The notes below the pieces were generated by a model. That model searched no databases. It saw nothing but the letters and a program-made list of their open reading frames with translations, and was not told where the DNA came from. Both the position numbers and the translations under genes were made by a program. Below, piece by piece: positions 35,688 to 59,760 of a stretch of 59,933 nucleotides of DNA; positions within the stretch are counted from its first letter, which is position 1; every line of letters starts with the position of its first letter. Source of the DNA: Herpetosiphon giganteus (lineage in GTDB: Bacteria > Chloroflexota > Chloroflexia > Chloroflexales > Herpetosiphonaceae); NCBI RefSeq assembly GCF_016907925.1, contig NZ_JAFBCZ010000018.1, positions 64,001 to 123,933 on the forward strand, read 5' to 3'.

Positions 35688-36127
35688 CGCAGAGGCGCAG
35701 CGTGTTTTTTGCACGCGAAGCACCCAAAGTTTGGGAATTGGAACTCTAACAACAATCCAACAAACAAACATTAGGGGGTGCTGGGGGATGAAAACCCCCG
35801 GCGTTTCCCTCCGGCGGAGGGACGGAAGGGTGGCGAACGATGAAAGATCTAAGCATCCAGCACTTTGCGCACGGTTTGCGCTAAGGTTGCCAATGAAACC
35901 AGAATGTTGCAGAGGCGCAGCGTGTTTTTTGCGCGCGAAGCACCCAAAGTTTGGGAATTGGAACCCTAACAACAATCCAACAAACAAACATTAGGGGGTG
36001 CTGGGGGATGAAAACCCCCGGCGTTTCCCTCCGGCGGAGGGACGGAAGGGTGGCGAACGATGAAAGATCTAAGCATCCAGCACTTTGCGCACAGTTTGGG
36101 CCAAGGTTGCCAATGAAAACGGCTTGC
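35688..36127. repeat. Tandem direct duplication of a ~220-bp unit (copy A about 35688-35907, copy B about 35908-36127). Each copy embeds the 66-bp structured element. Copy B overlaps the 3' end of the hybrid HK gene; copy A carries a pseudo-3'-end fragment of it.
   Basis: The units differ at only a few positions. Both contain ...gatgaaagatctaagcatccagcactttgcgcac..., the reverse complement of the HK C-terminal codons plus stop. Confidence 0.85.
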
Positions 36128-38210: not shown

Positions 38211-39082
38211 GAGCCATGCTCGCACGCCTGGAGAATACTCGCAGTTGAACGATTGGGCAATTGTTCGCGCGCAAAACCAAACGGCGCAATCAAGCCATAA
38301 TGTTCGTCGCTGCCAATAAATCCAAGCAACTGCTGATCGATTGCGCTGCGCAAATGGGTATCAGCAGGGCGCATCGCAAACGCCCCATAGCCAATACTCA
38401 GATTACCATTGATGATTGGCGGCACAAATGGCTGAGCGCGTTCAACCTGATCCGGCGCTTGCTGAACTAAGAGATCGACGCTAATGTCGGTTAAGGCTAA
38501 GCCATCGGCCCGCCCTGCGAGCACTGCTGCCAAGCCAGTTTGCACATCGGGCACAAATAATAATTGCTGAGCATCAATCCCAAGTATTTGGGCGATTGTT
38601 GCTTCCTCAGCGCCGCGCATCACCGCCAACCGCCGATCAGGTCGCCGAAAATCGCTAAAACTCTGAATATGCAGGGGATTGCCAAACTGAACCAAGATCG
38701 CGGGGCTCAGGGCAAAAGTTGGTTGACTAAAAGCCAACAGCTGGGCACGCTCGCAGGTAATAAACATGCCGCTAGCAATCAGATCAAACTTGCCAGCCTG
38801 CAAGCCAGGAATTAAATCGGCCCACTCGGTCTGAACCCATTCAAGCTGGGGGATGCCTAAGCGCTGCATAACCCATGTCATGACCACCGCCGCCTCGCCG
38901 TGCATCTCGCCGCTGGCACTACGATAAGCAAACGGTGCTTCGGGAGCATAGCCAATCCGGATCATGCCAGTGCGTTGGGCACGTTCTAAGGTTGTTTCCA
39001 CCGGAGTTGTCAGCCACCAGATTAAAGCAGTGGTAACAATAATCAGCGTTAAACCAGCAAAGCTCCACCATGCTCGACGCAT
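38207..39082 (-). CDS. Family-3 periplasmic solute-binding protein (SBP_bac_3), likely a sensor partner of the hybrid HK
   Basis: Start moved to the MRRAWW methionine followed by a TM segment. Amino-acid-binding SBP-like sequence. Translationally coupled to the HK. Confidence 0.65.
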   Translation of the reverse strand: MRRAWWSFAGLTLIIVTTALIWWLTTPVETTLERAQRTGMIRIGYAPEAPFAYRSASGEMHGEAAVVMTWVMQRLGIPQLEWVQTEWADLIPGLQAGKFDLIASGMFITCERAQLLAFSQPTFALSPAILVQFGNPLHIQSFSDFRRPDRRLAVMRGAEEATIAQILGIDAQQLLFVPDVQTGLAAVLAGRADGLALTDISVDLLVQQAPDQVERAQPFVPPIINGNLSIGYGAFAMRPADTHLRSAIDQQLLGFIGSDEHYGLIAPFGFAREQLPNRSTASILQACEHGS

Positions 39083-41164: not shown

Positions 41165-41423
41165 CCTTATGTAGTAAGGATGAAGGATGAGGGATGAATT
41201 ATGAACATCCCCATCGCTCACACCTTGGTTAATCTTGTAGAAGGGTGAAGGATGAGGGATGAATTATGAACATCCGCACCATTCACACCTTAGGTTTGTA
41301 ATGTAAGTTCTGCGCTTGATGTCTAAATTACATATTCAATAATGAAGAATGAAATAACCTTTCTAAATTCATAATTCGTCTATTTCATCCTTCATCCTTC
41401 ATCCTTCATCCTTCATAATTTCG
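41165..41423. repeat. dnaK-dnaJ spacer filled with GGATGAA-family repeats: two ~50-bp direct repeats (gaaggatgagggatgaattatgaacatcc...cacacctt) and (ttcatcc)x4-ttcataatt
   Basis: R1 at about 41178-41230, R2 at about 41244-41295, heptamer run at 41385-41420. R1/R2 and the run are mutually inverted, so long hairpins are possible. Confidence 0.7.
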
Positions 41424-44042: not shown

Positions 44043-45107
44043 CTATTCTGTTGGTTCTATTTTGCGTTCGCCGTATAAATCGCCCATCAGATCGCTCATG
44101 ACCCCAGCGATATAGCGCACGCTAGAGATTGAGCGCGGATAGGCCATGCGGCGCGGCCCCAAAACCCCGACAACTCCGGCAACATCGCCATTGACTCCGT
44201 AGCGCGAAAGAATCACACTATAATCGCGCAACTCATCGCGGCTATGCTCGCCGCCGATAATCACCTGCACGCCATCGGAGGCCAAGGCTTGGGGAATGAG
44301 CGATTCGAGCATCGTGCCGCCTTCGAGAATCGAAAGCACCTCGCGCACCCGCGTCACCTGGCCAAACTCTGGTTGATGCAGCATTTCGAGCAAGCCATCG
44401 TGATGAATTAATTCGTTGACATGCTCCTCGAATTGTTGCATTGCCCGCGCCACGCTCTCGATCACCAGCATTTCAAAACTGCTGAGCGGAGGTTGAGCCA
44501 CAGGCTGCGTCAGCGCAAGCGCCGCAATCGCCTTGGCCGAAGCTTCATGACAAAGCTCATTGATCCGGCCAGCGATTCTGCTAAGCTGCTCTTGGGTGGT
44601 GTTGGGGTCGGCGGGCAGCGTTTGTTGCTTAACCGAGCCTTCGTGCAACACCAACACCATCAACACCAAGGCATCGTTGATCGCGATCAATTCAATATGT
44701 TTAAAGCGACTTTCATAGGCGCGCGGGGGGGTAACCACGGCTGCGGTTTGGGCAGTTCGGGCCAAAACCGCTGCTGCCAAATGAATCCATTGGTTCAATT
44801 CCGAGCGGATTTGATAGAACTGATGTTGGATCATGCGCTGTTCTTGGGTGGAAAGCGCCGCCCGATCCATCAAATTTTCGACAAAGAAGCGATAGCCAGC
44901 ATCGGTGGGCAAGCGCCCAGCCGACGTATGCAAATGGGTCAAAAGGCCAGCATCTTCTAAGGCCGCCATTTCGTTGCGGACAGTCGCCGAGCTAACCCCC
45001 AAACTCCGCGCAAGATCCTGCGAGGCGACTGGAGTTGCCGTATCGATGTATTGTTGGATAACTGCCTTAAGCACCCGTCGTCGCCGCTCATTGAGTTCTA
45101 GATTCAT
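44043..45107 (-). CDS. hrcA: Heat-inducible transcription repressor HrcA
   Basis: N-terminal winged-HTH ([28 protein letters not shown]). Heads the grpE-dnaK-dnaJ operon, with a CIRCE operator upstream. Confidence 0.9.
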
Positions 45108-45121
45108 CGCTCACCTCGCTT

Positions 45122-45148
45122 TAGCACTCTTGGCCGCCGAGTGCTAAC
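45122..45148. promoter_or_regulatory. CIRCE operator (HrcA binding site) TTAGCACTC-N9-GAGTGCTAA
   Basis: Perfect match to the canonical CIRCE consensus, 15 nt upstream of the hrcA start. Confidence 0.9.
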
Positions 45149-45527: not shown

Positions 45528-48500
45528 ATGCGTTCGATGCGTATGCTGCGTTTGCTAGCAGCATTAATTGTGGTGAGCATGCTTCCATTGAGCCGAAGCA
45601 ACGCCCAAACTCCAACCACCAATGCCCCAATCAATCGCTTGCTCAACCAAGGAGCCAATGTTGCTCGCCACAGCCAAACAGGCTATGTGCGTTGGATTGG
45701 CGCGGCAGCAGGCACAACCCTCGATCAGCCAAGCGGCCTGAATCGGGCAGATACGGTTAATGTTGCCAACGCCTATGTGGCCGAATATGGTAGCTTGTTT
45801 GGCTTAGCCCAAGCCAGCGATGCAGCAATTGCAAAAACGACCACCACCCAAGATGGTCGCCAAGTTGTGCGTTATCAACAACGCTACCAAGGCGTGCCAG
45901 TAGTAGCTGGTGAATTGCAAGTGCAATTGAACCAAGCAGGCGAATTGCTCAGTATGAATGGCGAAGTGTTGCCAAATCTCAATCTGAGCACCAGCGCCAA
46001 ACTGAGCCAAGCCAACGCTAGCAGCATTGCCCAAAACTATGTTGCCGCCAAATACGATGCCAACACTGCCAACTTGAATGTGAGCAACAACGAGCTTTCA
46101 ATTTACAACCCAGCCTTGTTGGGTGGCACTGGTGTTCAAAAAAATAGCTTGGTTTGGTTAGTCACGATTGAATCAACCAGCAGCGAGCCAATTCGCGAGT
46201 ATGTGTTTGTCAATGCCCAGTCGGGCGAGATTAGCTTAGCCTTCAACCAAATTGGCTATGCCAAAAATCGCTTCGTCTGCGACGACGACAATGTGATTGA
46301 TACCGACAACACTCCCAATAATAACTGTGATGAAGCCAGCGAATATGTGCGCACCGAAGGCTCAGCCCCAAGTGGCGATGCAGATATCGATGCCGCCTAC
46401 GATTATTCGGGCGACACCTACGACTTCTACAACTTGTTCTTTGGCCGCAACAGCATCGACAACAACGGCATGAGCTTGATTTCATTGGTCAAGCATTGCC
46501 CACCTGGTGCTGGTTGCCCTTACCAAAACGCCTTCTGGAATGGTCGCCAAATGACCTATGGTGAAGGGTTTGCTGCTGCCGACGACGTGGTTGCCCACGA
46601 ATTGTCGCACGGCGTAACCGAATATACCTCAAACCTGTTCTACTACTTCCAATCAGGCGCAATCAACGAAGCCATGTCGGATATTTTCGGCGAATTCATG
46701 GATCAAACCAACGGTAGCGCCGACGATGATACAAGCACTCGTTGGATTATGGGCGAAGATTTGGGCGGATTGCGTGATATGCAAGATCCACCGCAAGGCG
46801 GCCAGCCTGATAGCATGCTCAGCCCATTGTATGTGCTTGACGCAAGCTTGGCTGACAACGGTGGCGTGCACACCAACAGCGGGATTGCCAACAAGGCTGC
46901 CTATCTGTTGACCGATGGCGACAGCTTCAACGGCCAAACGATCAACTCGATTGGCATCACCAAAACTGCCCATTTATTCTATGAAACCCAAATTAGCTCG
47001 TTGACTTCGGGCAGCGACTATGCTGATTTAGCGTCGGCTTTGCGCCAAGCGTGTAGCAGCCTAACTGGCAGCCATGGGATTACGGCAGCTGATTGTGCTG
47101 AAGTTAACAAAACCATTTTGGCCACCGAAATGGATTTGCAGCCAACCAACGCACCAGCTCCTGACATCAAGGCCTGTAGCCCTGGCCAAACTCAGGTTAA
47201 TGTTTTCGCCGATGATTTTGAAGCCTTGCCAAACACCAAATGGACTGCAAGCGCCTTGAGCGGTAGCAACGAAAGCTGGACGACCAATCCTGCTCAAATC
47301 GTTGGCGCGTATGCAACCAGCGGCAATGGTTCGGCCACCAACATCAATGGCGTGTATGGTGTGAATCAAGATGTTGAAGAATCGGCCTTCAGCCAAAATG
47401 CAGCTGTAACGGTTCCAGCCAATGGCTTTGCCTACTTCCGCCATGCCTACGATTTCTACTCACCAATCGATGCGGGCGTGGTTGAATATAGCACCAACAA
47501 CGGCAACAGCTGGCAATCGGCAGCAAACTTGTTTAGCTACAACGGGCCAAACAACATTGCTGCAGGCGGCGAATTTGCAGGCGAGCAAGCCTATGTTGGC
47601 AACAGCAATGGCTACACTGCTAGCCGCTTGAATCTCTCAAGCTTGGCTGGTCAATCAGTTCGCTTCCGCTTCAAAGTGGCGCTTGGCGACAACCCAACTC
47701 CAAGCCGCTCGGTTACCTGGTCGATTGACGATTTCGCAATCTACAGCTGTAGCGGCGCAGTAACGCCAGCAGCACCAAGCCTGTTCCTCACCAGCGATGT
47801 CTTGGCCCAACAAGGCAAGATTAGCAGTGCTGTGATTGGGACGGCCTCTGATGATATTGATTTGGCTGGTTCGTTGGCCGTGAGCGTTGCTGGCGCGCCA
47901 GCAGGCTTGAACGTCAACGTCGCCAACCAAGCAGGCATCTTGAAAGCGACGGTCAATTGTGCTTGTGACACCGAAGTTGGCAGCTACCCAATTACGGTAA
48001 CCGTCCGCGACAGCGGCAACCGCACCGCTAGCCAAGTATTCAATGTTGAAGTTGAAACCGCTGGCCAAAGCGTGATTGACGGTGGCTTTGAGCTCGGCGA
48101 GGGCTGGGAAGCCTTCTCAAGCTCGTTTGGCGACGTTTCACCGCCATTGTGTTTCTTGCCTGGCTGCGCTGGCGAGCCACGCACTGGCAATAGCTGGTTG
48201 CGCTTTGGCGCACGCGCTGGCAGCACCGAAACCGCGTTTGCAGAGCAAACCTTCACCTCAACTGCGAGCGATGCAACGCTTGAATTCTATCTCTCGATCT
48301 ATGCCCATAACGGGCGTGGCACGCAAGATTACGTCAAGCTTAGCATTGATGGCGAAGAAGTGTTCCGCGTCACCGATGCCAACACCGAATACGACAATGG
48401 CTATGCCAAAGTGACGATTCCATTGACCGACCTTGAAGCAGGCGCACATGTCTTGCGCTTCGATTCAGTCAATAATTCGACTACACGCAACATTCGCTTT

Positions 48501-48581
48501 AGCATTGATGACATCAGTTTGATTACTGAAACCAATCAATGCCGTGGCGTTGGCGTGTATCTGCCTGCCGTCACCAAATAA
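45528..48581 (+). CDS. Large secreted M4 (thermolysin-family) zinc metalloprotease with propeptide and ~500-aa C-terminal beta-sandwich/Ig-like extensions
   Basis: Signal peptide. HEXXH VVAHELSHGVTEY and the thermolysin motif GAINEAMSDIFGE. C-terminal domain ...VRFRFKV...WSIDDFAIY. Ends GVGVYLPAVTK. Confidence 0.85.
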   Translation: MRSMRMLRLLAALIVVSMLPLSRSNAQTPTTNAPINRLLNQGANVARHSQTGYVRWIGAAAGTTLDQPSGLNRADTVNVANAYVAEYGSLFGLAQASDAAIAKTTTTQDGRQVVRYQQRYQGVPVVAGELQVQLNQAGELLSMNGEVLPNLNLSTSAKLSQANASSIAQNYVAAKYDANTANLNVSNNELSIYNPALLGGTGVQKNSLVWLVTIESTSSEPIREYVFVNAQSGEISLAFNQIGYAKNRFVCDDDNVIDTDNTPNNNCDEASEYVRTEGSAPSGDADIDAAYDYSGDTYDFYNLFFGRNSIDNNGMSLISLVKHCPPGAGCPYQNAFWNGRQMTYGEGFAAADDVVAHELSHGVTEYTSNLFYYFQSGAINEAMSDIFGEFMDQTNGSADDDTSTRWIMGEDLGGLRDMQDPPQGGQPDSMLSPLYVLDASLADNGGVHTNSGIANKAAYLLTDGDSFNGQTINSIGITKTAHLFYETQISSLTSGSDYADLASALRQACSSLTGSHGITAADCAEVNKTILATEMDLQPTNAPAPDIKACSPGQTQVNVFADDFEALPNTKWTASALSGSNESWTTNPAQIVGAYATSGNGSATNINGVYGVNQDVEESAFSQNAAVTVPANGFAYFRHAYDFYSPIDAGVVEYSTNNGNSWQSAANLFSYNGPNNIAAGGEFAGEQAYVGNSNGYTASRLNLSSLAGQSVRFRFKVALGDNPTPSRSVTWSIDDFAIYSCSGAVTPAAPSLFLTSDVLAQQGKISSAVIGTASDDIDLAGSLAVSVAGAPAGLNVNVANQAGILKATVNCACDTEVGSYPITVTVRDSGNRTASQVFNVEVETAGQSVIDGGFELGEGWEAFSSSFGDVSPPLCFLPGCAGEPRTGNSWLRFGARAGSTETAFAEQTFTSTASDATLEFYLSIYAHNGRGTQDYVKLSIDGEEVFRVTDANTEYDNGYAKVTIPLTDLEAGAHVLRFDSVNNSTTRNIRFSIDDISLITETNQCRGVGVYLPAVTK

Positions 48582-48633: not shown

Positions 48634-48676
48634 CTGGTCTCGTGGTTAACCTGATATACCAATACGAATAACCACA

Positions 48677-48718
48677 AAAGCGCCACCATGGCTTAGGTCA
48701 TGGTGGCGCTTTTGATTT
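48677..48718. terminator. Bidirectional rho-independent terminator (aaaagcgccaccatg-gcttaggt-catggtggcgcttttgattttt)
   Basis: Perfect 11-bp stem followed by a T-run. Sits between the convergent M4 protease gene and the 48719 gene. Confidence 0.8.
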
Positions 48719-51034
48719 TTAGCGCCCAAACGCTGTCAAGGCGCGCTGGCTCAATAGTTCAGCTGGCAGCGGAAACTGGGCAATAAGCTGCCCATAGCTG
48801 CGCTCTTGAATCAAATTGCCAGCAACCCCAACCAAAACCAGCGTTTCAGCATCGGCACTAACCACCGCATGATTGTGTAATGGCAACTCATCGCTCCATT
48901 CCAAGGCTCCAGTTGCGGCGGCATAAACCCGATATTGCTTGCTGAGCACAGGTTGTTGCAAACTGCGTTGCCACCATAAGCGCGTGCCATCAGCCGACCA
49001 ACCGACAATTGGGGTTGTAGTTACCATCGGCCCGCTTGGTTGTTGATCAAGCACGTGCCATGTTTGGCTAGCATGATCGTAACGCTGCAATTGAGCCATG
49101 CCCTGCGCCGAATCAAAGGTTACTGCGGCTAAAGCAGAGCCATCAGGAGCCAAGGCTAGGGCATGGTCTGAGCTAAGCGGCAAACTGAGCGTACTTGAGG
49201 TTTGGTTGGTTAAATTCCACCAAACCAGCTGTTGCTCGCTAGCAGTTTGGCTTTGGCGATAAACCAAGGTTTGTTGGTTTGCCATAACCAAGGTTTGCGG
49301 CTCGTAGGGCAATTCGGCCAAAATTTCAATTTCCGCTTGTTGGGTGAGCATAATTTTGGCAAAAAAAGTTTTTTTGTTGAAAGCGCTTGTTCTGGCACCA
49401 TGCAATAAGGCATACAGGGTTTGACCACTCCACGCTAGCGGCTCGATCTTTTGATAGTTATGTGGTTTGAAGGTTGTTTCAAGCGCTGTAAGCTGGTTGG
49501 TAGTGAGATCTAAAAGCAGTAACGGTTGAGCAGAATGACGTGGCAAAAGAACAATCAGTACCTGTTGCAAATCGGGATTGATTACTGTTTGGATTGTCGT
49601 ATCTAATGGGTGTTCTATAGCAGAATAATCAATTTGACGATGGGTTTGGGTTTGGGGATCGTAGAGCCATAGTGCATCAGACGAATCGTCGCGGTAAAGC
49701 GCCAAAGCAGGGAGCTTAGGCCGCTTAATTAATAACCGTATATCAAGCATTTCAATCTGTTGATCGCTCCATAGGGTGGAATAGATAGTTGTTTGGTTCA
49801 TTGTCTCCTTGGCAAACAGTGCCAAGGGATAGCGCTCGGTAGCAGGGAGTACGATTTGATTGGTTGCTAGTGATTGAGCATTCGGCAACCCTCCATCAGG
49901 TATAGTTTGCGGCACTATTAAAATGTTCCCAACCGCTTGAATAGGTTGTTGCCCAACCGCAAAACTGGTGCGTTGTTGGCTTTGGGGATGCCACAAATCA
50001 ATAAAATAATTGTCATACAAATACGCATACCAATAGCCCGATTGATAGCTTGGCACGAGCGACAAGCGTTGCTCAACAGGATAAGAATCAAGCAATTTAC
50101 CGGTTTCAAGATCATAAATGTGCCATGTATAGGGCGGTTTCTTTCTAAAGGGCAGGGATTCTTCAATAACTGCAATCTGCTTTAAATCGGGCGCAACGAT
50201 AATGTTATAAGGCTGCTCGCTTGGTGGTGGCGTAAGTTGAACTGTGCGTAATGGCGCTCCCGTAAGCCCATCCAACTCAAGCACAGCCGTTTCGTTATGC
50301 AACACAAAAAGCCGTTGCTGAACAAATGTAATAATTCCACGCTCCTCAGCCGTGGTTAACTCAGCAGTTCGTGGGTCATAGTGGCTCATTTTCTGTTCAG
50401 ATTTATAGGTGGAGCACCAAAATGTCCCGTGGAGGTTCAGTGTACACGTATATCGAGAAATATACTCAAGGTTAATATCGTGCTGCTCAAGTATTGCTCC
50501 ATCGCTTAACTGAACATGCATCCATGTCCAAAAAAAAGCTCCAAGTTTTGGTTTACTGCGCTCAATTGTCAAATATACGCCAGTTTTGGCTTCATCGAGC
50601 GCCGCAAAGACGAAATCAGTCCCATCAAAAGTATCGAATTCTATTTCCCAGCGGTATTGATTGGTTGCAAAATCAAACAGCTGAATACCATTGAAGTGAT
50701 GACTAATTGCTAGGTGTTCTTCAGCAAAGATACTGACAATTTTATCGGGGTATTTCGCGCCAACAGGGGTTAATTCGCCGCTCGCTGCAAGCCAAACATA
50801 ATTTAAATCCAAGCCAAACTCTGGCTGTTTCAATTGCACCAACACCCGCTCATTGGCTGGCATGCTCAAGGCTTGGGTGGGCGTGGCAATTGGCTGGCTT
50901 GGGCTGGCTTGGGCTGCCGACGGTAAAGTTGGCGTGGCTTGGCTAACGACAGTTGGCGTGGGCTGTTGCGCTTGGCAATTGCTCAACAACCCAACCAATA
51001 TCCCCAGCAAAAGCATTCGATACACTTTTTGCAT
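48719..51034 (-). CDS. Lipoprotein with Pro/Thr/Ser-rich linker and beta-propeller-like (PD40/PQQ-like) repeats; distant member of the downstream paralog array
   Basis: Lipobox LLSNC; RBS gggagaagg. Repeat-like segments LELDGLTGAPLRTV, YDLETGKLL, ALAPDGSALAAV and WSADGTRLWW. Confidence 0.6.
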   Translation of the reverse strand: MQKVYRMLLLGILVGLLSNCQAQQPTPTVVSQATPTLPSAAQASPSQPIATPTQALSMPANERVLVQLKQPEFGLDLNYVWLAASGELTPVGAKYPDKIVSIFAEEHLAISHHFNGIQLFDFATNQYRWEIEFDTFDGTDFVFAALDEAKTGVYLTIERSKPKLGAFFWTWMHVQLSDGAILEQHDINLEYISRYTCTLNLHGTFWCSTYKSEQKMSHYDPRTAELTTAEERGIITFVQQRLFVLHNETAVLELDGLTGAPLRTVQLTPPPSEQPYNIIVAPDLKQIAVIEESLPFRKKPPYTWHIYDLETGKLLDSYPVEQRLSLVPSYQSGYWYAYLYDNYFIDLWHPQSQQRTSFAVGQQPIQAVGNILIVPQTIPDGGLPNAQSLATNQIVLPATERYPLALFAKETMNQTTIYSTLWSDQQIEMLDIRLLIKRPKLPALALYRDDSSDALWLYDPQTQTHRQIDYSAIEHPLDTTIQTVINPDLQQVLIVLLPRHSAQPLLLLDLTTNQLTALETTFKPHNYQKIEPLAWSGQTLYALLHGARTSAFNKKTFFAKIMLTQQAEIEILAELPYEPQTLVMANQQTLVYRQSQTASEQQLVWWNLTNQTSSTLSLPLSSDHALALAPDGSALAAVTFDSAQGMAQLQRYDHASQTWHVLDQQPSGPMVTTTPIVGWSADGTRLWWQRSLQQPVLSKQYRVYAAATGALEWSDELPLHNHAVVSADAETLVLVGVAGNLIQERSYGQLIAQFPLPAELLSQRALTAFGR

Positions 51035-51055
51035 AGCCTTCTCCCTCTCTGGCTC

Positions 51056-53440
51056 CTATGGTTGCGGATAGACATACTCAACACTAAATGATCGAAATGG
51101 AGTCGTCGCATCAAAGCCATTAAATTGGATTAACGGCAACCAGTGTTGATTAATTCGCTCCAAAATATACACATCGTCGGGCATCACCACCATGACACGC
51201 TGGCCAAACCAATCACTCTTGGTTAGATTGAACCAATCAGCAAGCACCAGTGAATGGCCGATTTGGCTTGTGCGGCTCAATGTCAGCAAGCGTGAGTTAA
51301 TCGTCTGGCTTTGGGCAAGCAAATAATATTGACTATCGCCCGACCACGTACCTTGAAAGCCTATCTGCAGCGGCTGGCGCATTAACTCCAAACCAGTTGC
51401 ACTATCAAACATCAACAAGGTGCCATAGCGCCAAGGATACGTCCGCTCAAACAGCATAATCGTCTGGCCATCGGGCGCGATCTCAATTTCAAGGGCCTTG
51501 CGATCATCGGTTGCCATGAGCAATTGGGTTAGTTGGCTGACGATTGAATAGCGCTGAAGTTGATCTTGGAAATCTTGATAGACGACAATTGGCGAGCCAG
51601 CCGTATACCAAAGCTCCTTCGCCTGATCAGGATTGAGCAGATTTGTGCCTTGGCTTGGGTCATTGGCCGAGCTTTGCCAGACCAAATATTCAAACGATTG
51701 CGCCGATTCAAGCCACGTTCGACCAACAATTGTTAGTTGCTGCCCATCCCAGTAGATGGGGATTAATGTGGTTGCGGCGGGCAGTTCGGCAAAAATCCTG
51801 GGTTGGCCAGTTTGCAGATCAACCGCAAGGCAACGGTTGACTCGTGAATTGGATTGCGCATTGAAATGATAGCTATAGCACACCGCAATGCTCCGATTAT
51901 CGGGCGCACTGACTCCCGCAAAATCATCCCAACCGCCAATTTCAGCGGGATCGAGATCAAGGGTAAGGGTTGTTTGGCTGGTTGGATCAAAAATCTGCCA
52001 GCTTGCGTCTGTCCGATCAATCAGCAATGGCGCTGCATTCCAACGGGCAATACGATAAAAACTTTCTTCAGACTCCACGCGACGGCTTTCGTTAGGCCAA
52101 AGCTGGAGGGTCTGCGATTCATGCCCAACTAAAGCCAAAGGCTGAGCGGCCAATGCCACAGGCGCAAGCGGAGCATTTGCCGGAAACGGAACAGTCAAAA
52201 TTTCAAGCTGTGGGTTAGCAACCGAGGGCAGTGGCTGAAACTTGGGAATTAATCCAAACCCAAAAATTGTATGCTCAAGCTCAATCGTTTGAGTTTGGTT
52301 GGTTGGGAGATCAATCGTTTCCAAGACACCAGTGCGATTGAGCAGAATGAGGCGTTGGTCATCGAGAAAGCGAATCAACTGACTCACATCATAGCTACTG
52401 GTATGAGTTCGTTCATAGACTAATTGACGTTGCCACAAACCAAGCCCATTGCCAGCGCGATCATAGGCGAAAATTTGCTGAACTAAATTTGTGTCGAAGT
52501 TTTCGAAACGATTAACAACCGCAACCACATAGCTGAGATCGGGCGAAACCAACAGATGATCAATGCGTCCAGCACGTGGTAAATGTGAAAATTCAGTTTG
52601 GTTGAGCGTTTGACGCTTGAGCAAATCGATTTCGTTGACCATGCCTGAACCAAAGACCAAGGCCCGCTGCCCATCGGCTGCCACCGCAGCGAACTCAAGC
52701 TGGCTAAACCAGGGTTCTGCAAAGCCTTCACTGGCCGCATCAAAGCCAAACAATTGACCGTCGGCCAAAAGCCATGGACCAGCGGCGGTTGGCAAGACTT
52801 TGGGTTGTTGGCGCAACAGCGGTGCTTGATATTGGCGCAATTCTAGGCCACTGCGGCTATCCAGCCCACGCAAACGCACCGTCGCAGGCTGAAATGGGTC
52901 ATTGGTGGCTTGCTTTTCGATTAACCAAACCACATCCATAAATGGATCGTTGACCACATCCAAAATTGTGGTTTCGCGTTGATCTGTTTGGGTAAACAGT
53001 GGCAATTGCCACAAACGCCGATCATCGCGCAACGAACGGGCTTCGAGCCAGGCATAATTGCGACTCAACAGCACATTATGGTCGCGGTCAATTGTAATTA
53101 TCGGCTCTCGATCGATGAGCTTGCCTCGCGGTTGAGGCTGATTAACGCCATCCCAAAAATGCGACTCAGCCTCATCTCCCATCAACAGCAACTGTTGCTC
53201 GCCCAGATCAAGCGTTTTGCTGGCGGGCAGCGGCTGATTGGGTTGGGGCTGAGTTGCAATACTCGGGGTTGGAACTGCTGCAACCACCACCGTCGCAGTT
53301 GGCACAGGTGCTGGGGGCGCTGGCGTTTGGGCTGCCAAAATCATGGCAATTAATAAACCAATCCCAGCCATGACTGGTAGAATTTGCCAACGACGGCCTG
53401 AACCGCCAATCTTGGCGCGCTGCGAATGCTCTTCCATCAT
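51056..53440 (-). CDS. Membrane-anchored beta-propeller-repeat protein, paralog family member 2 (ends YVYPQP)
   Basis: Start set to the MMEEHSQ methionine after RBS gagagg. N-terminal RRWQILPVMAGIGLLIAMILA TM segment; P/T-rich linker; PD40-like segments (IAPDGQTIMLF). Confidence 0.6.
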   Translation of the reverse strand: MMEEHSQRAKIGGSGRRWQILPVMAGIGLLIAMILAAQTPAPPAPVPTATVVVAAVPTPSIATQPQPNQPLPASKTLDLGEQQLLLMGDEAESHFWDGVNQPQPRGKLIDREPIITIDRDHNVLLSRNYAWLEARSLRDDRRLWQLPLFTQTDQRETTILDVVNDPFMDVVWLIEKQATNDPFQPATVRLRGLDSRSGLELRQYQAPLLRQQPKVLPTAAGPWLLADGQLFGFDAASEGFAEPWFSQLEFAAVAADGQRALVFGSGMVNEIDLLKRQTLNQTEFSHLPRAGRIDHLLVSPDLSYVVAVVNRFENFDTNLVQQIFAYDRAGNGLGLWQRQLVYERTHTSSYDVSQLIRFLDDQRLILLNRTGVLETIDLPTNQTQTIELEHTIFGFGLIPKFQPLPSVANPQLEILTVPFPANAPLAPVALAAQPLALVGHESQTLQLWPNESRRVESEESFYRIARWNAAPLLIDRTDASWQIFDPTSQTTLTLDLDPAEIGGWDDFAGVSAPDNRSIAVCYSYHFNAQSNSRVNRCLAVDLQTGQPRIFAELPAATTLIPIYWDGQQLTIVGRTWLESAQSFEYLVWQSSANDPSQGTNLLNPDQAKELWYTAGSPIVVYQDFQDQLQRYSIVSQLTQLLMATDDRKALEIEIAPDGQTIMLFERTYPWRYGTLLMFDSATGLELMRQPLQIGFQGTWSGDSQYYLLAQSQTINSRLLTLSRTSQIGHSLVLADWFNLTKSDWFGQRVMVVMPDDVYILERINQHWLPLIQFNGFDATTPFRSFSVEYVYPQP

Positions 53441-53520
53441 CAATACCTCTCGTAGGGTTGCTCTCATTGGAGCATACTATCGAACCTTGCCCTAATCATA
53501 GCAAACTATGCCAAGTTGGC

Positions 53521-53862
53521 TTAGCGAGGATACACATAACGCACCCTGCTTCTAGGCGTGGCTTCGAGTTGGTGTTGCCGAAGAAGCACTAGCGCTGTGC
53601 GAGCTTGAGCACTTGGCGTGGCATGAGGAGTTGTGCTTGGAAATAGAACAATCGTGGCGGTCGGGCTGGGTTTAATCGTGGGCGAGGCAGCAAGCGCCAC
53701 GGCTGTTGGCTGGTTGGTAGGGCTAGGTTAGGCTTGATCAACAGGGCTTAAACCAAACAGCATACGCACAACTAAGCCAAGCCCAATTACTGTGCAACTC
53801 AGCAGCAAAACCCGCCAATGTCGCCCTAGATTGCGAGCCTTGGCGGCAGAACGATCATCCAT
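53521..53862 (-). pseudogene. Decayed paralog remnant: N-terminal anchor (MDDRSAAKARNLGRHWRVLLLSCTVIGLGLVV...), in-frame TAA, linker (PTAVALAASPTIKPSPTATIVLFP) joined directly to a C-terminal ...RVRYVYPR stop. The ~2.3-kb ectodomain is deleted.
   Basis: Single reading frame with an internal TAA at 53728-53730. Matches N-terminus, linker and C-terminus of the 54024 and 56948 genes (compare DRNWWRVLPVLGALGLLGLMLVL, TAVALLGSATPSIQPSPTLIAAPFP, YYVYPR). Confidence 0.6.
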
Positions 53863-54023
53863 CAGCAAACCCTCTCACTCGTGCTTGACCATGGGGAATA
53901 GTACGATCAAGCCTAGCGCACACGTCATGGGTTGCACAATGATAGCAAGCTGATGCCAAGCTGAGTCAAGGCTGGGGATCATAACCTGTCATCCGATCCC
54001 CAACCCCCGATCCCTATATCCAA

Positions 54024-56708
54024 TTAGCGTGGATACACATAATAAATCTCTTCGGAAAGGCCAATATCCTCGCTAATCCGCCAATCAATCTGTAATGCTT
54101 GGCCATCCCAGCTGAGTTGCTCAAGGCTTGGTTGCCACAAATGCTGGGCCAGCAGCGTTTTGCCATCGTTATACAAGGCTACTGGTTTTTTGAGCGGATC
54201 ACGCTTTGTACTAAATACGAGGCTTGGTTGTTGGGCGTTATAAACGCCAAGCCGTTGTTCGCGGCTAATATTCCCAAAATCCAACAACAACCAACGGCCA
54301 TCAGGCGACCATAAAAATGGGCTTTCGCTACTCTCGGAATACGCGCCTGAATCTAGTTGATACCAGCGTTGCTGCTCAAGCTGATATAAGGCCGGAGCAC
54401 TACTGCCATCAGCTGTTGGCAACATAAAAGCAAAGCTATTGCCTTCGGGCGAAAAACTCAGCGCATCGGCGGCTAATGGCATCAATGGCAGGGCAATATC
54501 GTGGCTTTGCTGCTTAACCAAATCGAGCACTCGCAACAGCATCGTTTTATTAGCAGCAGCCAGCGGGTAGATTAGCCAGCGTTGATTGGGCGCAACATAC
54601 ACCCGGGCCAGAATCGCATTGCTCACATCAGGAATGTTGGCCACAATCGCGGGAATTTCAGCGATTTTTTCTGCTTGGAATGGCGGCCCGAGCTGCACCC
54701 GCCAGAGCAGTTGAGGGTTTTTGCTGGTTTGCAGAAAATAGATGCTATCGCCTTGCCAAGCAAGCGGCTTAGCCCATTTCAATTCTGGCCAGGTGCGCGA
54801 ATCGGCGAGCACATTCCATTCGCCAGTTTGGGTATTGATTTGCAGCAGTTGACTTGCCCCAATAAATTGATCGTTGCTACGCATATCTTGGCCTACCACC
54901 ACCACCATGCTTTGATAATTTGGCGCAAGCATGCTGTCGATAAAACTTTCGTCGTTCAGAATCTTTTCAAATTCCCATTCGACAGTTTGCTGGCTCACCG
55001 GATCAAGCAATTGCCATGTTTTTGATTTGGGGTGTTGCAGCACTAAGGGCGGCTGATTATAGCGCTCAAACAGCCTAGAACCTTCCTCAACCAATACTTC
55101 AAGCGTTTGATCAGATGATAGCCGTTGCAAGCGTAAATCTAGGCCAAGTCGATCGCCAAAAATTGCCACTGGCTGAATGCTTGGGGGTTGAATCGTTGGC
55201 AAATTCGGTTGATCATACATTGGCACCATGGTTGGTAACGGCGTAACCGCCGCTTGATATTCGCTATTCGCCAGATTAATCGCCGGGCCAGCGATCTCAC
55301 CCAGCCATGCAATGCCATGATCGCCCCAAACTGAAGCTGGAACAACCTCGGTCAAGCTATTGGTTGCGACATTCCAACGGCTAACCAACTGCTGCTCACG
55401 CTCCCAATCGAAGCTCGAGATGAACCATTGATCGGCAGTTATGCCAGGGTAGATTGAGCTAAGGCTGTCAACTTCGCTGATCCCAAGCAACTGCCCAGTT
55501 TGCAGGTTGTAGACCGAGCTGAAATACCGATCGTCAACGCGTGGATCATCACTGCTGACGATGCTCTCAACCACTAAGGTTTGTTGGTTATGCGAGAACG
55601 TGGCGCTAAGCAGATTGCCTTGAAACGGCGGATTTAATGCTACTTTTTGCTCATTACCACTCGCCCAATCGATCAGGCTCAACGTGGTTGGTGCCCGAAA
55701 CACCCCCAAGAATGGTTGCGTGCCATCACCAACAATCTCATTCTTATTAAGCGCACCAACATCACGTTTTGTCATGGTCATGGGGTCAAATTGAAACAGT
55801 TTATCCTCTTCGATGCCCCAAATCTTGCCATCGCTGGTCATGATATGGCTATGGCCTGGGAGTGGTAATGAGCTGGGGCCATCAAGCAGCTGACCATCCT
55901 GAATCGCGAGATGGCTCCACGTCCAACGTGCATCATCGCTACGTTGATCAAGCACATAGACCCCGCTGCCAGCTTGATCAACTTTTAGCCTACTTTTACG
56001 ATCATACTGGTTTTTGGGCAATAATTGCATACTCCAACGCGGCTGACCCGTTTTGAGGTCAATTGCAACTAAGTTTTGGTTACGCGGCAGCAGCAAGGTT
56101 TGTTGCTCGGGCAACAGCGCCATAAAGTTTGCTGCATACTCATCGACGGTCGCAATTGGCACAAAGCCTGTAGCCTCAACGCGTACCAATTGATATTGCT
56201 CTATATCAGCACGCACAATCATTGCATAGCTATGGATTTGGTCAACAGGTGTAGGTTGAGCCGTTAACGTTGGCAGCGTTGTAGGTGTTTGAAGCCCAAG
56301 CGTTGCTGCGGGAATCGTCGTTGTTGGTTGTTGAATCGCGGGCACAATTGTTGGCAACAACTCGGCATCATTCAGATCCCTGGTTGGAACGCTGGTGAAT
56401 GCTGGCTCAATCGTCGCTAACCGAAACTCGCCTGGGTCTGCTGGCAAAACTTGGATTGGCGGCGCTGATTGCTCTGGTTGCCAGGCAGGAAACGGCGCGG
56501 CAATCAAGGTTGGGCTAGGCTGAATACTTGGCGTAGCTGAACCAAGCAAGGCCACCGCAGTGGAGTCAACATCCGCTTCATCAAGCCTACTTGGCATGAA
56601 TGTCAGCACCAGCATCAAGCCAAGTAGGCCCAACGCCCCAAGCACGGGCAGCACCCGCCACCAATTGCGATCCTTGCTCAGTTTCACCCGTTCTCGTTGT
56701 GGTTGCAT
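54024..56708 (-). CDS. Membrane-anchored beta-propeller-repeat protein, paralog 3 (TolB/PD40-like repeats; ends IYYVYPR)
   Basis: ATG for MQPQRERV follows RBS gaggag; the ORF track starts at an upstream TTG. TM segment WWRVLPVLGALGLLGLMLVL; P/T linker; motifs AIDLKTGQPRW, LSFSPEGNSF and WSPDGRWLLLD. Confidence 0.65.
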   Translation of the reverse strand: MQPQRERVKLSKDRNWWRVLPVLGALGLLGLMLVLTFMPSRLDEADVDSTAVALLGSATPSIQPSPTLIAAPFPAWQPEQSAPPIQVLPADPGEFRLATIEPAFTSVPTRDLNDAELLPTIVPAIQQPTTTIPAATLGLQTPTTLPTLTAQPTPVDQIHSYAMIVRADIEQYQLVRVEATGFVPIATVDEYAANFMALLPEQQTLLLPRNQNLVAIDLKTGQPRWSMQLLPKNQYDRKSRLKVDQAGSGVYVLDQRSDDARWTWSHLAIQDGQLLDGPSSLPLPGHSHIMTSDGKIWGIEEDKLFQFDPMTMTKRDVGALNKNEIVGDGTQPFLGVFRAPTTLSLIDWASGNEQKVALNPPFQGNLLSATFSHNQQTLVVESIVSSDDPRVDDRYFSSVYNLQTGQLLGISEVDSLSSIYPGITADQWFISSFDWEREQQLVSRWNVATNSLTEVVPASVWGDHGIAWLGEIAGPAINLANSEYQAAVTPLPTMVPMYDQPNLPTIQPPSIQPVAIFGDRLGLDLRLQRLSSDQTLEVLVEEGSRLFERYNQPPLVLQHPKSKTWQLLDPVSQQTVEWEFEKILNDESFIDSMLAPNYQSMVVVVGQDMRSNDQFIGASQLLQINTQTGEWNVLADSRTWPELKWAKPLAWQGDSIYFLQTSKNPQLLWRVQLGPPFQAEKIAEIPAIVANIPDVSNAILARVYVAPNQRWLIYPLAAANKTMLLRVLDLVKQQSHDIALPLMPLAADALSFSPEGNSFAFMLPTADGSSAPALYQLEQQRWYQLDSGAYSESSESPFLWSPDGRWLLLDFGNISREQRLGVYNAQQPSLVFSTKRDPLKKPVALYNDGKTLLAQHLWQPSLEQLSWDGQALQIDWRISEDIGLSEEIYYVYPR

Positions 56709-56947
56709 CGATATTGCTCCTCTATTCAATCATGAGTGGCTATCGGCACTAGGCTATAGGCTATTGGCTATGGGCTATTGGCGTTGGGAACCGCGAAGCG
56801 CACGAAGGACGCGAAGGTTCGTTTTTAGCCACAAATTGCCCGAAGCATAGAGTGTCGCCACAGCTTCATACTCCCAATAGCCTTCAGCCTAGAGCCGATA
56901 GCCTAACTCCTCCCCCCTGATCCCCGATCCCCGATCCCTACGTACAA

Positions 56948-59611
56948 TCAACGCGGATACAGATAGCGAATCGTCTCAAGCCTTATTTCCATTGGGGCCA
57001 TACGCCACTCAGTTTGCCATTCTTGCTCGCGCCATGTCAACTGGGTAAATGCCGGATTCCAAGATTGGCCAGTTAGAAGCGTTTTGCCATCGTTATCCAA
57101 GGCTAGTAATCGATGCTCGGTCGGCTCAATTTGCGAACGCAAAGCGAGGCTTGGTTGCTGCGTATTATAGATGCTCAGGCGGCGGTTAAGCCCAACATAG
57201 CCAAAATCGACCGCCAGCCACTTGCCATCAGGCGACCACAAAAACTGGTCTTGGCTATTGGCATAAAAGCCTGCATCAAGCTGATACCAACGTTGCTGCG
57301 CAAATTCATACAAGCCAACATAGTGATCATGTTTGGGGTTCAAGCTTGGCAGGATTAACCCAAAACGCTCGCCATCGGGCGCAAAGCTCAAGCTCACCAG
57401 ATCGATCAATGGCAGCGTCAATTCATGGCTTTGTTGCTCGACCAAATCGAGCACCTTCACCAACATAGTTTCCTTATTCGCCGTCGCCAGCGGATAGAGT
57501 AACCAGCGTTGGTTGGGTGAAATAACGATTCTGGCAAAGATTGGATAACTTGAAACTGCTGGATCACTGGTAACAACGCTGGGAATTTCAGCCAGTTTTG
57601 TGGCTTGGAACGGTGGGCCTACTTGCACGCGCCAAAGCACCTGCGGGTTCGGCCCAGCTTGCAGAAAATAAGCGCTATCGCCGTGTAATGCAATTGGTTT
57701 AGCCCATTGCAGCTCAGGCCATGTCCATGAATCAGCGAGAATATTCCATGTGCCAGTTTGCAGATTAATCTGAACTAACTGACTTGAGCCGGTAAATTGA
57801 TCGCTGCGCTGTAAATCTTGGCCCACAATCACCAGCAAGCTGCGATAATCGGGTGCTAGCAAGGGGTCAAAATCCAATTCGCTAGTACTAAGAATTTTTT
57901 CAAATTGCCATTCCACAGTTTGTTGGGTGTTTAGGTCGAGCATTTGCCACTGGCGTGCTTGGGGGCGTTGCAGCACTAATGGAGTTTGGTTATAGCGTGG
58001 AAACGTGTGCACCACAAAATCAGCAAGCAACTCCGTGTGCAAGTCGCTATCGATCCGCTGTATGCCACCGTTAGCAGCAACCAAGGCCACGGGCTTGGTC
58101 GTAGCAGGCAAGATCGTTGGCAATGGTGTTTGTTCATAGATCGAAACAGGGCTAGGCAAGGGCGTAACTGCTGCTTGAAATTCACTTGCAAGCGGTTCAA
58201 TTGGCGCACCGCTAACCTCGCCAAGCCATAGAATGCCATTATCGCCAATGATCGTTGGCACAACTACTTGGGTCAACGTATTGGTTGCCATGTTCCAAAG
58301 GCTAAGATCGCGCTTGGAACTCACATAATCAGGCATGATTACTAACCATTGATCGGCACTATTGGTTGGATAGAGGCTGCTAAACATATCATGCTTGATC
58401 GTGGCAATTAATCGGCCAGTTTGGAGATCATAGGCTAAATAGTCATCATTTGCGCTGAAGGAACTGGTAGGCGGAGCCGCACTATCAACAACCAAGATCG
58501 TTTGATCGTTGGATAAAAAGCCTGCTCTAGGCATCCACTCAAATGGGCTTGCGTCTAATTCAACTGAACGCTCGTCGCCAGTTGCCCAATTGATCAGGCT
58601 CAATGTTGTTGGGCTACGAAATACGCCCAACAACGGTTGGCGGCCATCGCCCAAAATTGTCGCGTTGGAGAGTGAACCAAATTCTTGGTAGGCTTGGGTT
58701 GCAGGGTCATAGTGAAACAGGGTTTCCGGCGTGGAAAACCAAATGTGGCCAGTGCTCGTGAGCAACAGTTGATCAACTGCTGGCAATTTAAAATGTTGGG
58801 CTGGTTGCTGCAAAATTCCATCATTCAACCCAAGGTGACTTAAACGCCAGGTCATCGTTGCTTGATTAATTTCAATCAGATAGACCCCAGTGCCAGCCTG
58901 ATCAAGCGTCAAGTGACTTGTATAATCAAGCGCCGTTTTGGGCAACAAACCATAGCGCCATAGTTCGCGACTAGTCGCCAAATCAAGCGCAACCAATTGC
59001 TGATTGCGCGGAATCAAGACACGTTGTTGCGCAGGCAACAAGGTCATAAAGCGCTCAGCATAGGCATCAACGGCAGCAATCGAAACCAAATTATTGGAGT
59101 CGATTCGCACGAGGTTATGGCCCGCAGGGCTATGCACAATCGCATAGCGCTGGCTTTGGGTAGCTGGCGTTGGGCGCGCAGTTGGCGCTGGCAGCGGCGT
59201 AACGGTTGAGGCTGGTAGATTGGTTGGTGCTGGCTCAATCACCGGCACAATCGTGGGTAAGGGCATCGGATCGCCTGGCAATTTAGGAGGAACGGTTGTC
59301 AGCACAAGTTCTGGTTGCACCGTCACCACGCGAATCTCGCCCAGTTTATCGGGCAGCAGCCGAATTGGCGGTGGCTCCGCTGGTCGGGTAGGAAATGGCG
59401 CGGCAATCAAGGTTGGGCTAGGCTGAATACTTGGCGTAGCTGAACCAAGCAAGGCCACCGCAGTGGGGTCAACATCCGCTTCATCAAGCCTACTTGGGAT
59501 GAATGTCAGCACCAGCATCAAGCCAAGTAGGCCCAACGCCCCAAGCACGGGCAACACCCGCCACCAATTACGATCGTTGCCAAGTTTGACTCGCTCCCGT
59601 TGTGGTTGCAT
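56948..59611 (-). CDS. Membrane-anchored beta-propeller-repeat protein, paralog 4 (ends IRYLYPR). The first 81 residues and the leader are nearly identical to paralog 3.
   Basis: Same architecture: ALDLATSRELW, LSFAPDGERFG and WSPDGKWLAVD. The 5' ~250 nt of the CDS and ~120 nt upstream are nearly identical to 56460-56850. Confidence 0.65.
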   Translation of the reverse strand: MQPQRERVKLGNDRNWWRVLPVLGALGLLGLMLVLTFIPSRLDEADVDPTAVALLGSATPSIQPSPTLIAAPFPTRPAEPPPIRLLPDKLGEIRVVTVQPELVLTTVPPKLPGDPMPLPTIVPVIEPAPTNLPASTVTPLPAPTARPTPATQSQRYAIVHSPAGHNLVRIDSNNLVSIAAVDAYAERFMTLLPAQQRVLIPRNQQLVALDLATSRELWRYGLLPKTALDYTSHLTLDQAGTGVYLIEINQATMTWRLSHLGLNDGILQQPAQHFKLPAVDQLLLTSTGHIWFSTPETLFHYDPATQAYQEFGSLSNATILGDGRQPLLGVFRSPTTLSLINWATGDERSVELDASPFEWMPRAGFLSNDQTILVVDSAAPPTSSFSANDDYLAYDLQTGRLIATIKHDMFSSLYPTNSADQWLVIMPDYVSSKRDLSLWNMATNTLTQVVVPTIIGDNGILWLGEVSGAPIEPLASEFQAAVTPLPSPVSIYEQTPLPTILPATTKPVALVAANGGIQRIDSDLHTELLADFVVHTFPRYNQTPLVLQRPQARQWQMLDLNTQQTVEWQFEKILSTSELDFDPLLAPDYRSLLVIVGQDLQRSDQFTGSSQLVQINLQTGTWNILADSWTWPELQWAKPIALHGDSAYFLQAGPNPQVLWRVQVGPPFQATKLAEIPSVVTSDPAVSSYPIFARIVISPNQRWLLYPLATANKETMLVKVLDLVEQQSHELTLPLIDLVSLSFAPDGERFGLILPSLNPKHDHYVGLYEFAQQRWYQLDAGFYANSQDQFLWSPDGKWLAVDFGYVGLNRRLSIYNTQQPSLALRSQIEPTEHRLLALDNDGKTLLTGQSWNPAFTQLTWREQEWQTEWRMAPMEIRLETIRYLYPR

Positions 59612-59632
59612 CGATATTGCTCCTCTATTCAA

Positions 59633-59760
59633 TCATGAGTGGCTATCGGCACTAGGCTATTGGATGTTGGCTATTGGCTTTTGGCGTTGGGAACCGCGAA
59701 GCGCACGAAGGACGCGAAGATCACGAGGGCTTTGGACTTCTGACTTCTGACTTTTGATGT
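59633..59760. repeat. Conserved leader/repeat block upstream of paralog 4 (tggctatcggcactaggctattgg..., cgcgaagcgcacgaaggacgcgaag, ctgacttctgacttttgat)
   Basis: Nearly identical block at 56730-56830 upstream of paralog 3. Contains TTCGTG/CACGAA and ctttt-gac modules. Confidence 0.6.

Follow-up and report, generated by a model that had tools for sequence, protein, structure and literature searches.

A strain-variable tandem array of predicted stalked double beta-propeller proteins in Herpetosiphon giganteus

What do four large, adjacent and mutually similar genes encode when none of them can be assigned to a known family? This question is raised by a locus of Herpetosiphon giganteus at positions 48719–59632 of a 59,933-nt stretch of DNA (contig NZ_JAFBCZ010000018.1, positions 64,001–123,933 of the forward strand; hereafter the window). 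Herpetosiphon is a gliding, filamentous "wolf-pack" predator belonging to the Chloroflexota, a phylum whose envelope and surface biology is poorly known, and we know of no account of how it contacts prey, surfaces or kin. The original prediction, made from the letters of the window, described here an array of anchored TolB/PQQ-like beta-propeller proteins. Our analysis revealed that the four genes, designated G1 to G4, are homologous, that their ectodomains can be modelled as two consecutive beta-propellers, and that copy number at the locus varies between Herpetosiphon genomes.

All four genes are located on the minus strand. G1 (771 amino acids, aa) occupies positions 48719–51034 according to the list of open reading frames (ORFs). 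For G2 the longest ORF (51056–53467) gives 803 aa from the first ATG and about 794 aa (51056–53440) from M(L)MEEHSQ, the start found in its orthologues. G3 comprises 901 aa when read from a TTG (54024–56729) and 894 aa when read from Met8 (54024–56708); likewise, G4 comprises 894 aa from a TTG (56948–59632) and 887 aa from Met8 (56948–59611). Met8 corresponds to the MQPQ start of the G4 orthologues, which are 887–892 aa long.

Pairwise BLASTP comparison showed that G3 and G4 share 52% identity over their full length. G1 is 22–23% identical to G3 and G4 over 700–765 aa (E 6e-17 and 6e-18) and G2 is 25% identical to G4 over 555 aa (E 2e-11); the direct comparison of G1 with G2 was not significant. 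Each of the four matched the family profile end to end with E 1e-204 or better, a result that demonstrates full-length alignability and is no independent test, as G1–G4 are rows of the profile's own alignment. When the window was searched with this profile, a short relic was the sole match beyond G1–G4. G1–G4 are homologous and built to one common plan, which includes an N-terminal anchor, a disordered stalk and an all-beta ectodomain. The prediction of four paralogous minus-strand genes with one architecture was confirmed by homology far beyond chance and by the shared plan.

What is the fold of the ectodomain? The AlphaFold2 model of G4, built from 21 sequences, has a mean predicted local distance difference test score (pLDDT) of 74, with 80–93 within the propellers; that of G1 has a pLDDT of 69. 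Both are all-beta except for the anchor helix and the disordered stalk. In G4, propeller 1 (aa 153–467; 58211–59155, minus strand) comprises 28 strands as assigned by DSSP, i.e., seven four-stranded blades, and is YVTN/PQQ_2-like, and a Pro-rich hinge joins it to propeller 2 (aa 507–884; 56960–58093, minus strand), which has 31 strands forming 7–8 blades and is PD40/TolB-like. The corresponding all-beta domains of the G1 model are located at aa 62–375 and 403–755. The best matches of both models in the PDB, obtained with Foldseek, were beta-propellers, mostly tandem double propellers, and the structural neighbors included the propellers of PREPL, DPP-IV, acylaminoacyl peptidase, and the trilobed and tricorn proteases. 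According to these models, the ectodomain is a tandem double beta-propeller. The region of about 650 aa that had been singled out from its PD40/PQQ-like signatures is indeed propeller-like, but it holds two propellers (with 7 and 7–8 blades) and not one.

To which types do these propellers belong? The repeat motifs quoted in the original prediction (WSPDGxWL, SF(S/A)P(D/E)G and A(L/I)DLxTGxxxW) are present, and the Pfam matches of the window proteins were all below threshold (PQQ_2, 14.1 bits against a cut-off of 27.6 in G3; PD40, 14.8 against 20.9). When 30 family members were scanned singly, PQQ_2 was found in 12 of them (best E 4e-10, in remote members) and PD40 in eight (best E 1e-6). A profile built from Herpetosiphon sequences only (A1) had no significant match among PDB sequences, the best being a Bacteroides sensor (4A2L; E 0.015) and TolB (E 0.24). 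All significant sequence links to the PDB came from a broader profile (A4) that includes more distant family members. Its positions 92–404, covering propeller 1, align over about 300 residues with residues 9–305 of 1L0Q, the YVTN propeller of a surface-layer protein from Methanosarcina mazei (E 1.2e-17), and its second propeller is similar to TolB (E 4e-9) and to the WD40 protein PkwA (E 6e-14). At the level of the family profile, propeller 1 can therefore be classed by sequence similarity as YVTN-type and propeller 2 as PD40/WD40-like, and the label "TolB/PQQ-like" is correct at the level of the superfamily.

The N-terminal parts of the proteins suggest how the propellers are attached. G4 has a basic N-terminal tail followed, in the AlphaFold2 model, by a transmembrane (TM) helix (aa 17–36) and a disordered Pro/Thr/Ser-rich stalk that extends from aa 37 to about 145–150. 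G3 has the same architecture and G2 is also TM-anchored; across the array proteins the stalk comprises 40–110 residues rich in Pro, Thr, Ser and Gln. In the model of G1, a signal helix (aa 2–18) is followed by a short stalk; the signal is of the cleavable type and ends in LLSNC. A lipobox had been proposed here. All G1-type copies, and also the G2-like copies of the lipoprotein type, have the Cys, but the motif itself, L-S-N-C in G1 and LSTC, LCNC or LSNC in its orthologues, has Asn or Thr at position -1 and is non-canonical with respect to [LVI][ASTVI][GAS]C. Lipid anchoring of G1 via the conserved Cys is possible.

At the opposite end, three of the four proteins terminate in Y-x-Y-P-R/Q, as had been noticed (G3, YYVYPR; G4, RYLYPR; G2, EYVYPQP), and G1 does not have a Y-x-Y-P ending. 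In the whole 60-kb window this ending is confined to G2, G3, G4 and the relic of a fifth copy. The last strand of propeller 2 in the G4 model (residues 881–884, DSSP) consists of the R-Y-L-Y of this conserved motif. A sortase- or exosortase-type sorting signal (LPXTG, PEP-CTERM, MYXO-CTERM) was considered and rejected: Y-x-Y-P-R/Q(P) represents the very last residues, modeled as the final beta-strand, with no hydrophobic helix and basic tail after it.

Could the propellers be enzymes? In agreement with the original prediction, neither a catalytic domain nor conserved catalytic residues were found, and scans of G1–G4 against Pfam and NCBIfam gave nothing above threshold and no enzyme family. 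When the 30 family members are aligned, two residues (P745 and W792) are invariant; ten more columns come close to invariance, and most of these hold Trp, Gly, Pro, Asp, Leu or Tyr. Since there is no catalytic domain and invariance is limited to these two residues, a non-enzymatic binding function appears preferable. It should be mentioned that many extracellular propellers are catalytic and that single family members gave weak sub-threshold matches to Lactonase, PQQ and DPPIV_N, which would be in line with propeller-scaffold enzymes (lactonases, lyases, glycosidases or cofactor-dependent dehydrogenases) acting on extracellular polymers during predation. However, no curated enzyme-family threshold is reached by the members from the window, the near-invariant columns are mostly of structural residue types, and the weak constraint and frequent gene loss described below fit a conserved active site poorly. 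We consider an enzymatic role very unlikely and retain binding as the preferred function.

How widespread is the family? All named full-length relatives come from Herpetosiphon species or from metagenome-assembled genomes (MAGs) of Herpetosiphonaceae, and all are annotated as hypothetical. The word-seeded profile search did not recover orthologues of the G1/G2 type, which were taken from the loci and from a separate search; the patterns used to scan a genome collection matched only genes of the G3/G4 type. An exhaustive hidden Markov model search added about 20 further full-length relatives of 750–850 aa (E from 1e-80 to about 1e-12), in which one or two stretches cover most of the profile; the other approximately 500 matches of this search are multi-stretch PD40-like blade matches in giant repeat proteins that are not members of the family. 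One weak sequence match is a tricorn-like protease. The same plan is kept by the distant members: a basic tail and TM segment are followed by a stalk rich in Pro, Thr and Ala and by two propellers, and the C-terminal strand is hydrophobic, ending in ...IYLIYAP, ...IVYVP, ...IYIP or ...IVWVGE. One more distant genome carries three tandem copies in a different neighborhood with no protease nearby.

The family could not be attached to any described system, as had been stated from the sequence. Besides the Pfam and NCBIfam scans, the anti-phage models of PADLOC gave no match at E <= 0.1 for any of G1–G4, and no description of the family was found in literature searches. The propeller domains themselves are familiar ones. 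What is undescribed is the family with its architecture and array dynamics: no curated family exists for it, all copies are annotated as hypothetical, and no literature on it was found.

Comparison of related genomes revealed that the locus is stable in position and variable in content. Its left flank (DinG-like helicase, a gene of the DUF type, HD-GYP sensor and PIG-L) is conserved in five Herpetosiphon genomes, and the arrays of the genomes listed below are all located downstream of the same PIG-L gene. The right flank in most genomes is a convergent M4 protease gene followed by hrcA-grpE-dnaK-dnaJ. A single family gene is present at the locus in H. aurantiacus DSM 785, where the right flank is different. 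Four genes and the relic are present in the window, four in MAG MFD03066 (with G2 split into two ORFs), at least five in H. geysericola (some of them broken or chimeric), at least six in strain NSE202 and eight in H. llansteffanensis CP188824. Clustering at 55% identity separated at least 10 subtypes, and two strains of H. llansteffanensis differ in their sets of family genes.

The relic in the window illustrates how copies are lost. It occupies about 340 nt (53521–53862, minus strand) of the 556-nt gap between G3 and G2 and was recognized by translation and blastn as the remains of a fifth copy of the "MDDRS" type. In one frame it retains the tail, the TM segment and the early stalk, then a TAA codon (53728–53730), more of the stalk, and the C-terminal RVRYVYPR with a stop codon. 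Relative to an intact H. llansteffanensis gene of 890 aa, the propeller body of about 2.4 kb has been cleanly deleted. Relative to NSE202, a further 4.7 kb with two G2-like genes is absent, in a blastn comparison that mapped also onto a truncated NSE202 gene.

Broken or chimeric copies were also observed in related loci (L004, 15694–18901 and 21397–22680; L002, 15770–18191; L005, 15682–17202). Among the forms seen are a G4-like gene split into halves with a G2-type N-terminal fragment between them, a G1 copy with an internal deletion, a G2 copy present as two overlapping ORFs, and an "MDDRS"-type gene truncated to 506 aa.

This variability bears on another possible role, namely that of a structural envelope or surface coat (S-layer-like), in which stalked propellers would tile the filament as a protective or mechanical layer. 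The homology of propeller 1 to the propeller of the M. mazei surface-layer protein is in line with such a role, as is the combination of a membrane anchor, a Pro/Thr-rich stalk and a globular head, which is a common design of envelope proteins; fast evolution is also known for surface coats. On the other hand, S-layer genes are usually single and highly expressed, whereas here one to eight divergent tandem paralogues are found, with presence varying within species, and no self-assembly or lattice domain was detected in these proteins. A coat function is in our opinion unlikely, and a binding function remains the preferred reading.

How fast do the genes of the array diverge? As reference we used the positional orthologues in H. 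llansteffanensis; the nonsynonymous to synonymous divergence ratio (dN/dS) and the synonymous divergence (dS) of the flanking chaperone genes were computed for DnaK, HrcA and DnaJ, not for GrpE. The proteins DnaK, GrpE, HrcA and DnaJ are 98.1–99.7% identical (DnaK 99.7%, HrcA 98%), with dN/dS of 0.005–0.04 and dS of 0.26–0.28. The corresponding values are 93.5%, 0.11 and 0.32 for the M4 protease; 85%, about 0.2 and 0.39 for G4; 83%, about 0.2 and 0.44 for G3; 69%, 0.29 and 0.75 for G2; and 59%, 0.35 and 0.93 for G1. Since the dN/dS values of the array genes (0.17–0.35) clearly indicate purifying selection, these genes are real and functional, but they are weakly constrained.

The divergence is not uniform along the genes. 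Compared with its positional orthologue (L007, 19934–22231), G1 is a mosaic: its last approximately 180 residues (from about residue 595 to the end) have proportions of nonsynonymous and synonymous differences (pN 0.04–0.06, pS about 0.3) at the level of the flanks, and residues 50–400 are near saturation (pN 0.35–0.57, pS 0.55–0.9). This profile suggests that the first propeller of G1 was replaced through recombination. Together with the excess of dS, this mosaicism speaks for segments having been exchanged for those of divergent alleles or paralogues by recombination, and against simple acceleration.

These data also bear on a housekeeping function. PD40- and PQQ_2-type repeat signatures and a lipoprotein-like signal in G1, such as BamB and LpqB have, could be taken to mean that the proteins are envelope-maintenance factors equivalent to TolB, BamB or LpqB. 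Direct tests gave no such assignment: the TolB model TIGR02800 scored 13 bits in G1 against a cut-off of 343, with no match in G2–G4, and the BamB model NF008351 scored 12.8 bits against a cut-off of 423. No tol-pal (tolQ, tolR, tolA, pal, cpoB), bam or mtrAB genes were found in the neighborhood, the neighbors being the M4 protease, hrcA-grpE-dnaK-dnaJ and, as seen in related loci, PIG-L. Moreover, the copies number one to eight with relics, they diverge 10–60 times faster than the flanks, and the Chloroflexota are commonly considered to have no classical outer membrane. Equivalence to these factors is effectively excluded. The view that the array is an expanding, diversifying family and no set of housekeeping genes was supported by copy number, by relics and broken copies, by dN/dS higher than that of the flanking chaperone genes (0.17–0.35 vs. 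0.005–0.04), and by restriction to one lineage.

The 5' ends of the genes behave differently from their bodies. A cassette that begins about 110 nt before the ATG and reaches approximately codon 75, comprising the upstream region, the tail, the TM segment and the early stalk, is present as a direct repeat in G4 (59374–59673, minus strand) and G3 (56471–56770, minus strand). The two copies are 93% identical over 300 nt, compared with 50–60% for the remaining gene bodies. At the amino acid level the cassettes of the G3/G4 paralogues are 92–94% identical, and those of G4 orthologues, including that of the closest genome, 69–89%. Because paralogues of the same genome are more alike in this region than G4 orthologues are, the cassette bears the mark of gene conversion within the genome. 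Subtypes have exchanged anchor modules as well: some G2-like bodies carry a G1-type signal with the conserved Cys. It is plausible that the repeated 5' ends serve as substrates for the deletions and duplications that distinguish strains.

As to other DNA elements, neither inverted repeats nor invertible elements were found in the array, and the window contains no Rfam families or tRNAs. G2 and G1, which are 21 nt apart, are probably co-transcribed. A conserved motif of the form CTTGGCAT-N3-4-TTGCTAT(C/G)AT is located on the minus strand upstream of G2 (53480–53520) and of the relic (53930–53965), and it contains a possible extended -10 element (TGcTATCAT or TGcTATGAT). A sigma-54-like reading of this TTGGCAT...TTGCT motif was rejected, as the GG–GC spacing read from the alignment is 1–2 nt too short, and a scan with the sigma-70 consensus gave fewer sites than were found in shuffled controls. 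Heptanucleotide tandem repeats occur next to G3 and G4, just upstream of them and just 3' of their stop codons (GGCTATA/TGGCTAT x6.5 at 56738–56782 and 59640–59685; CCCCGAT x3.4 at 56915–56938). They are also found in many other intergenic sites of the window, including 29886–29916 (AAGGATG x4.4), 41384–41416 (TTCATCC x4.7), 30087–30117 and 18299–18316, and resemble the heptamer repeats of the STRR type (short tandemly repeated repetitive sequences) of cyanobacteria. A further repeat, with a unit of 220 bp in two tandem copies of 97% identity (35689–36118), overlaps the start of a 718-aa ORF (36069–38225, minus strand) and has no match in Rfam.

The neighbor of the array on the other side of G1 is a secreted M4 (thermolysin-type) metalloprotease of 1017 aa (45528–48581, plus strand), in which the Pfam domains FTP, Peptidase_M4 and M4_C confirm the earlier identification. 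It is a conserved neighbor of the array in most Herpetosiphon genomes and is transcribed convergently. A strong bidirectional terminator hairpin with an 18-bp stem and T-rich sequences on both sides (48675–48714) is located between the 3' ends of G1 and of the protease gene. This terminator ends the transcription unit of the array, and since it separates convergent genes, the protease is a separate unit. Beyond the protease, a perfect CIRCE (controlling inverted repeat of chaperone expression) element, TTAGCACTC-N9-GAGTGCTAA (45121–45147), lies directly upstream of hrcA (44043–45107, minus strand), where it is expected to be the HrcA operator heading the hrcA-grpE-dnaK-dnaJ cluster.

The proximity of the protease gene raises the possibility that the array proteins are partners of the protease, by analogy with the propellers that gate access in tricorn and in S9 peptidases. 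The tethered propellers could then catch substrates or display them to the enzyme, keep the enzyme at the cell surface, or protect the producing cell from it. Array and M4 gene are adjacent in the window as well as in H. llansteffanensis and a related MAG, and the structural neighbors named above include the propellers of several peptidases, to which the weak tricorn-like sequence match may be added. However, these structural matches are generic, the genes are convergent and split by the terminator, and no M4 gene is found beside the H. aurantiacus copy or the three-copy array of the more distant genome. In addition, the protease is 93% conserved and the array proteins 59–85%, which indicates no co-variation. 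A partnership of this kind seems improbable to us, and the M4 protease probably lies outside the array as a unit.

What function can then be proposed? We suggest, with confidence that is evenly balanced, that G1–G4 are stalked surface proteins with non-enzymatic propeller heads and belong to a family evolving by birth and death. The N-terminus would hold each protein in the cytoplasmic membrane, either by an uncleaved signal-anchor helix or, in G1, by a signal peptide with the conserved Cys, and the disordered stalk would raise the double-propeller head off the membrane. Judging from the basic tail, the TM segment or signal peptide, and the stalk, the topology would be N-in/C-out with the heads displayed beyond the wall; it is from the anchor and the stalk that we infer surface exposure. 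Most likely the heads would serve as platforms that bind macromolecules outside the cell, for instance polymers of prey or of the environment, partners on cell surfaces, or phage; this ligand binding and the ecological role are inferences. Birth and death, conversion of the 5' ends and mosaicism are seen in the data, and the repertoire would turn over through duplications in tandem, deletions between the repeated 5' cassettes, conversion of the anchor module, mosaic replacement of propeller segments and decay to relics.

Several observations weigh against this proposal. First, in sliding windows of 50 codons no window showed robust pN>pS (dN>dS), i.e., there is no support for positive selection. 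Second, the fast divergence could reflect relaxed constraint combined with recombination. Third, the YVTN and PD40 assignments derive from a profile that includes distant members, and the window proteins themselves are sub-threshold in Pfam. Finally, some propellers are enzymes without recognizable motifs.

A more far-reaching version of the proposal, which we regard as possible but doubtful, is that the array represents a polymorphic recognition repertoire of a multicellular predator. Each head would then recognize a different target (prey surface, kin filaments or phage), and the 5' cassettes would act as recombination handles by which heads are gained, lost or swapped. In our literature searches, no recombination-driven system of variable surface receptors was found described for Chloroflexota. 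The observed pattern of evolution (one to eight copies, homogenized anchor cassettes, mosaic heads and relics) is typical of molecules that interface with other organisms, and the locus provides a defined set of candidate surface proteins that are confined to one lineage and variable between strains. Should binding to prey, kin or phage be confirmed, the proteins would offer a tractable entry to recognition in Chloroflexota; if they are coat proteins only, the array would be an ordinary lineage-specific expansion of well-known propeller domains. The locus offers a good starting point for experiments on surface recognition in a predatory member of the Chloroflexota, even though the class of molecule is unsurprising.

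How do these proteins compare with known propeller systems? The closest likeness for propeller 1 is 1L0Q, an extracellular protein with a YVTN-repeat propeller that can be aligned with this domain over about 300 residues. It is archaeal, and beyond the propeller, which ends at about residue 305, its solved chain continues to residue 391; in the array proteins a second, PD40-type propeller follows instead. Neither an N-terminal TM or lipid anchor followed by a Pro/Thr stalk nor a C-terminal Y-x-Y-P is present in the 1L0Q protein, and it is not part of a tandem variable array. TolB resembles the array proteins in its extracytoplasmic location and in its PD40 blades (WSPDG-like), which are matched by the profile of propeller 2. 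TolB itself, a housekeeping protein of diderms, is soluble in the periplasm, combines a TolA-binding domain at its N-terminus with a single 6-bladed propeller, and is encoded once, in the tol-pal operon, whereas the array proteins are anchored, have two propellers, are multicopy and fast-evolving, and have no tol-pal context. With BamB they share the PQQ_2-type motif A-L-D-L-x-T-G-x-x-x-W of propeller 1 and, possibly, the lipid anchor in the case of G1. BamB, however, consists of one propeller with eight blades and belongs to the BAM (beta-barrel assembly machinery) complex of the outer membrane, and no BAM context was seen in the window.

Two consecutive extra-membrane propellers that bind or gate macromolecular ligands are known from tandem-propeller sensors and gates, namely the Bacteroides hybrid two-component sensors (4A2L and 3OTT) and the beta6–beta7 propellers of tricorn (1K32), the latter being a Foldseek match across both propellers (E 1e-13). 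Those proteins run on into signaling or catalytic domains, whereas in the Herpetosiphon proteins the cytoplasmic part is a tail of some 15 residues and the chain stops with propeller 2. In genetic organization the array is analogous to variable surface-protein arrays with conserved 5' modules, such as the vsp/vlp-type families of Mycoplasma. The fold is entirely different, and no phase-variation machinery was found in the array (invertible elements, inverted repeats or a recombinase; homopolymer switches were likewise not noted). The analogy consists in that, in both cases, tandem paralogues share a near-identical upstream region and anchor-encoding 5' end, while the exposed part diverges and the number of copies varies from strain to strain.

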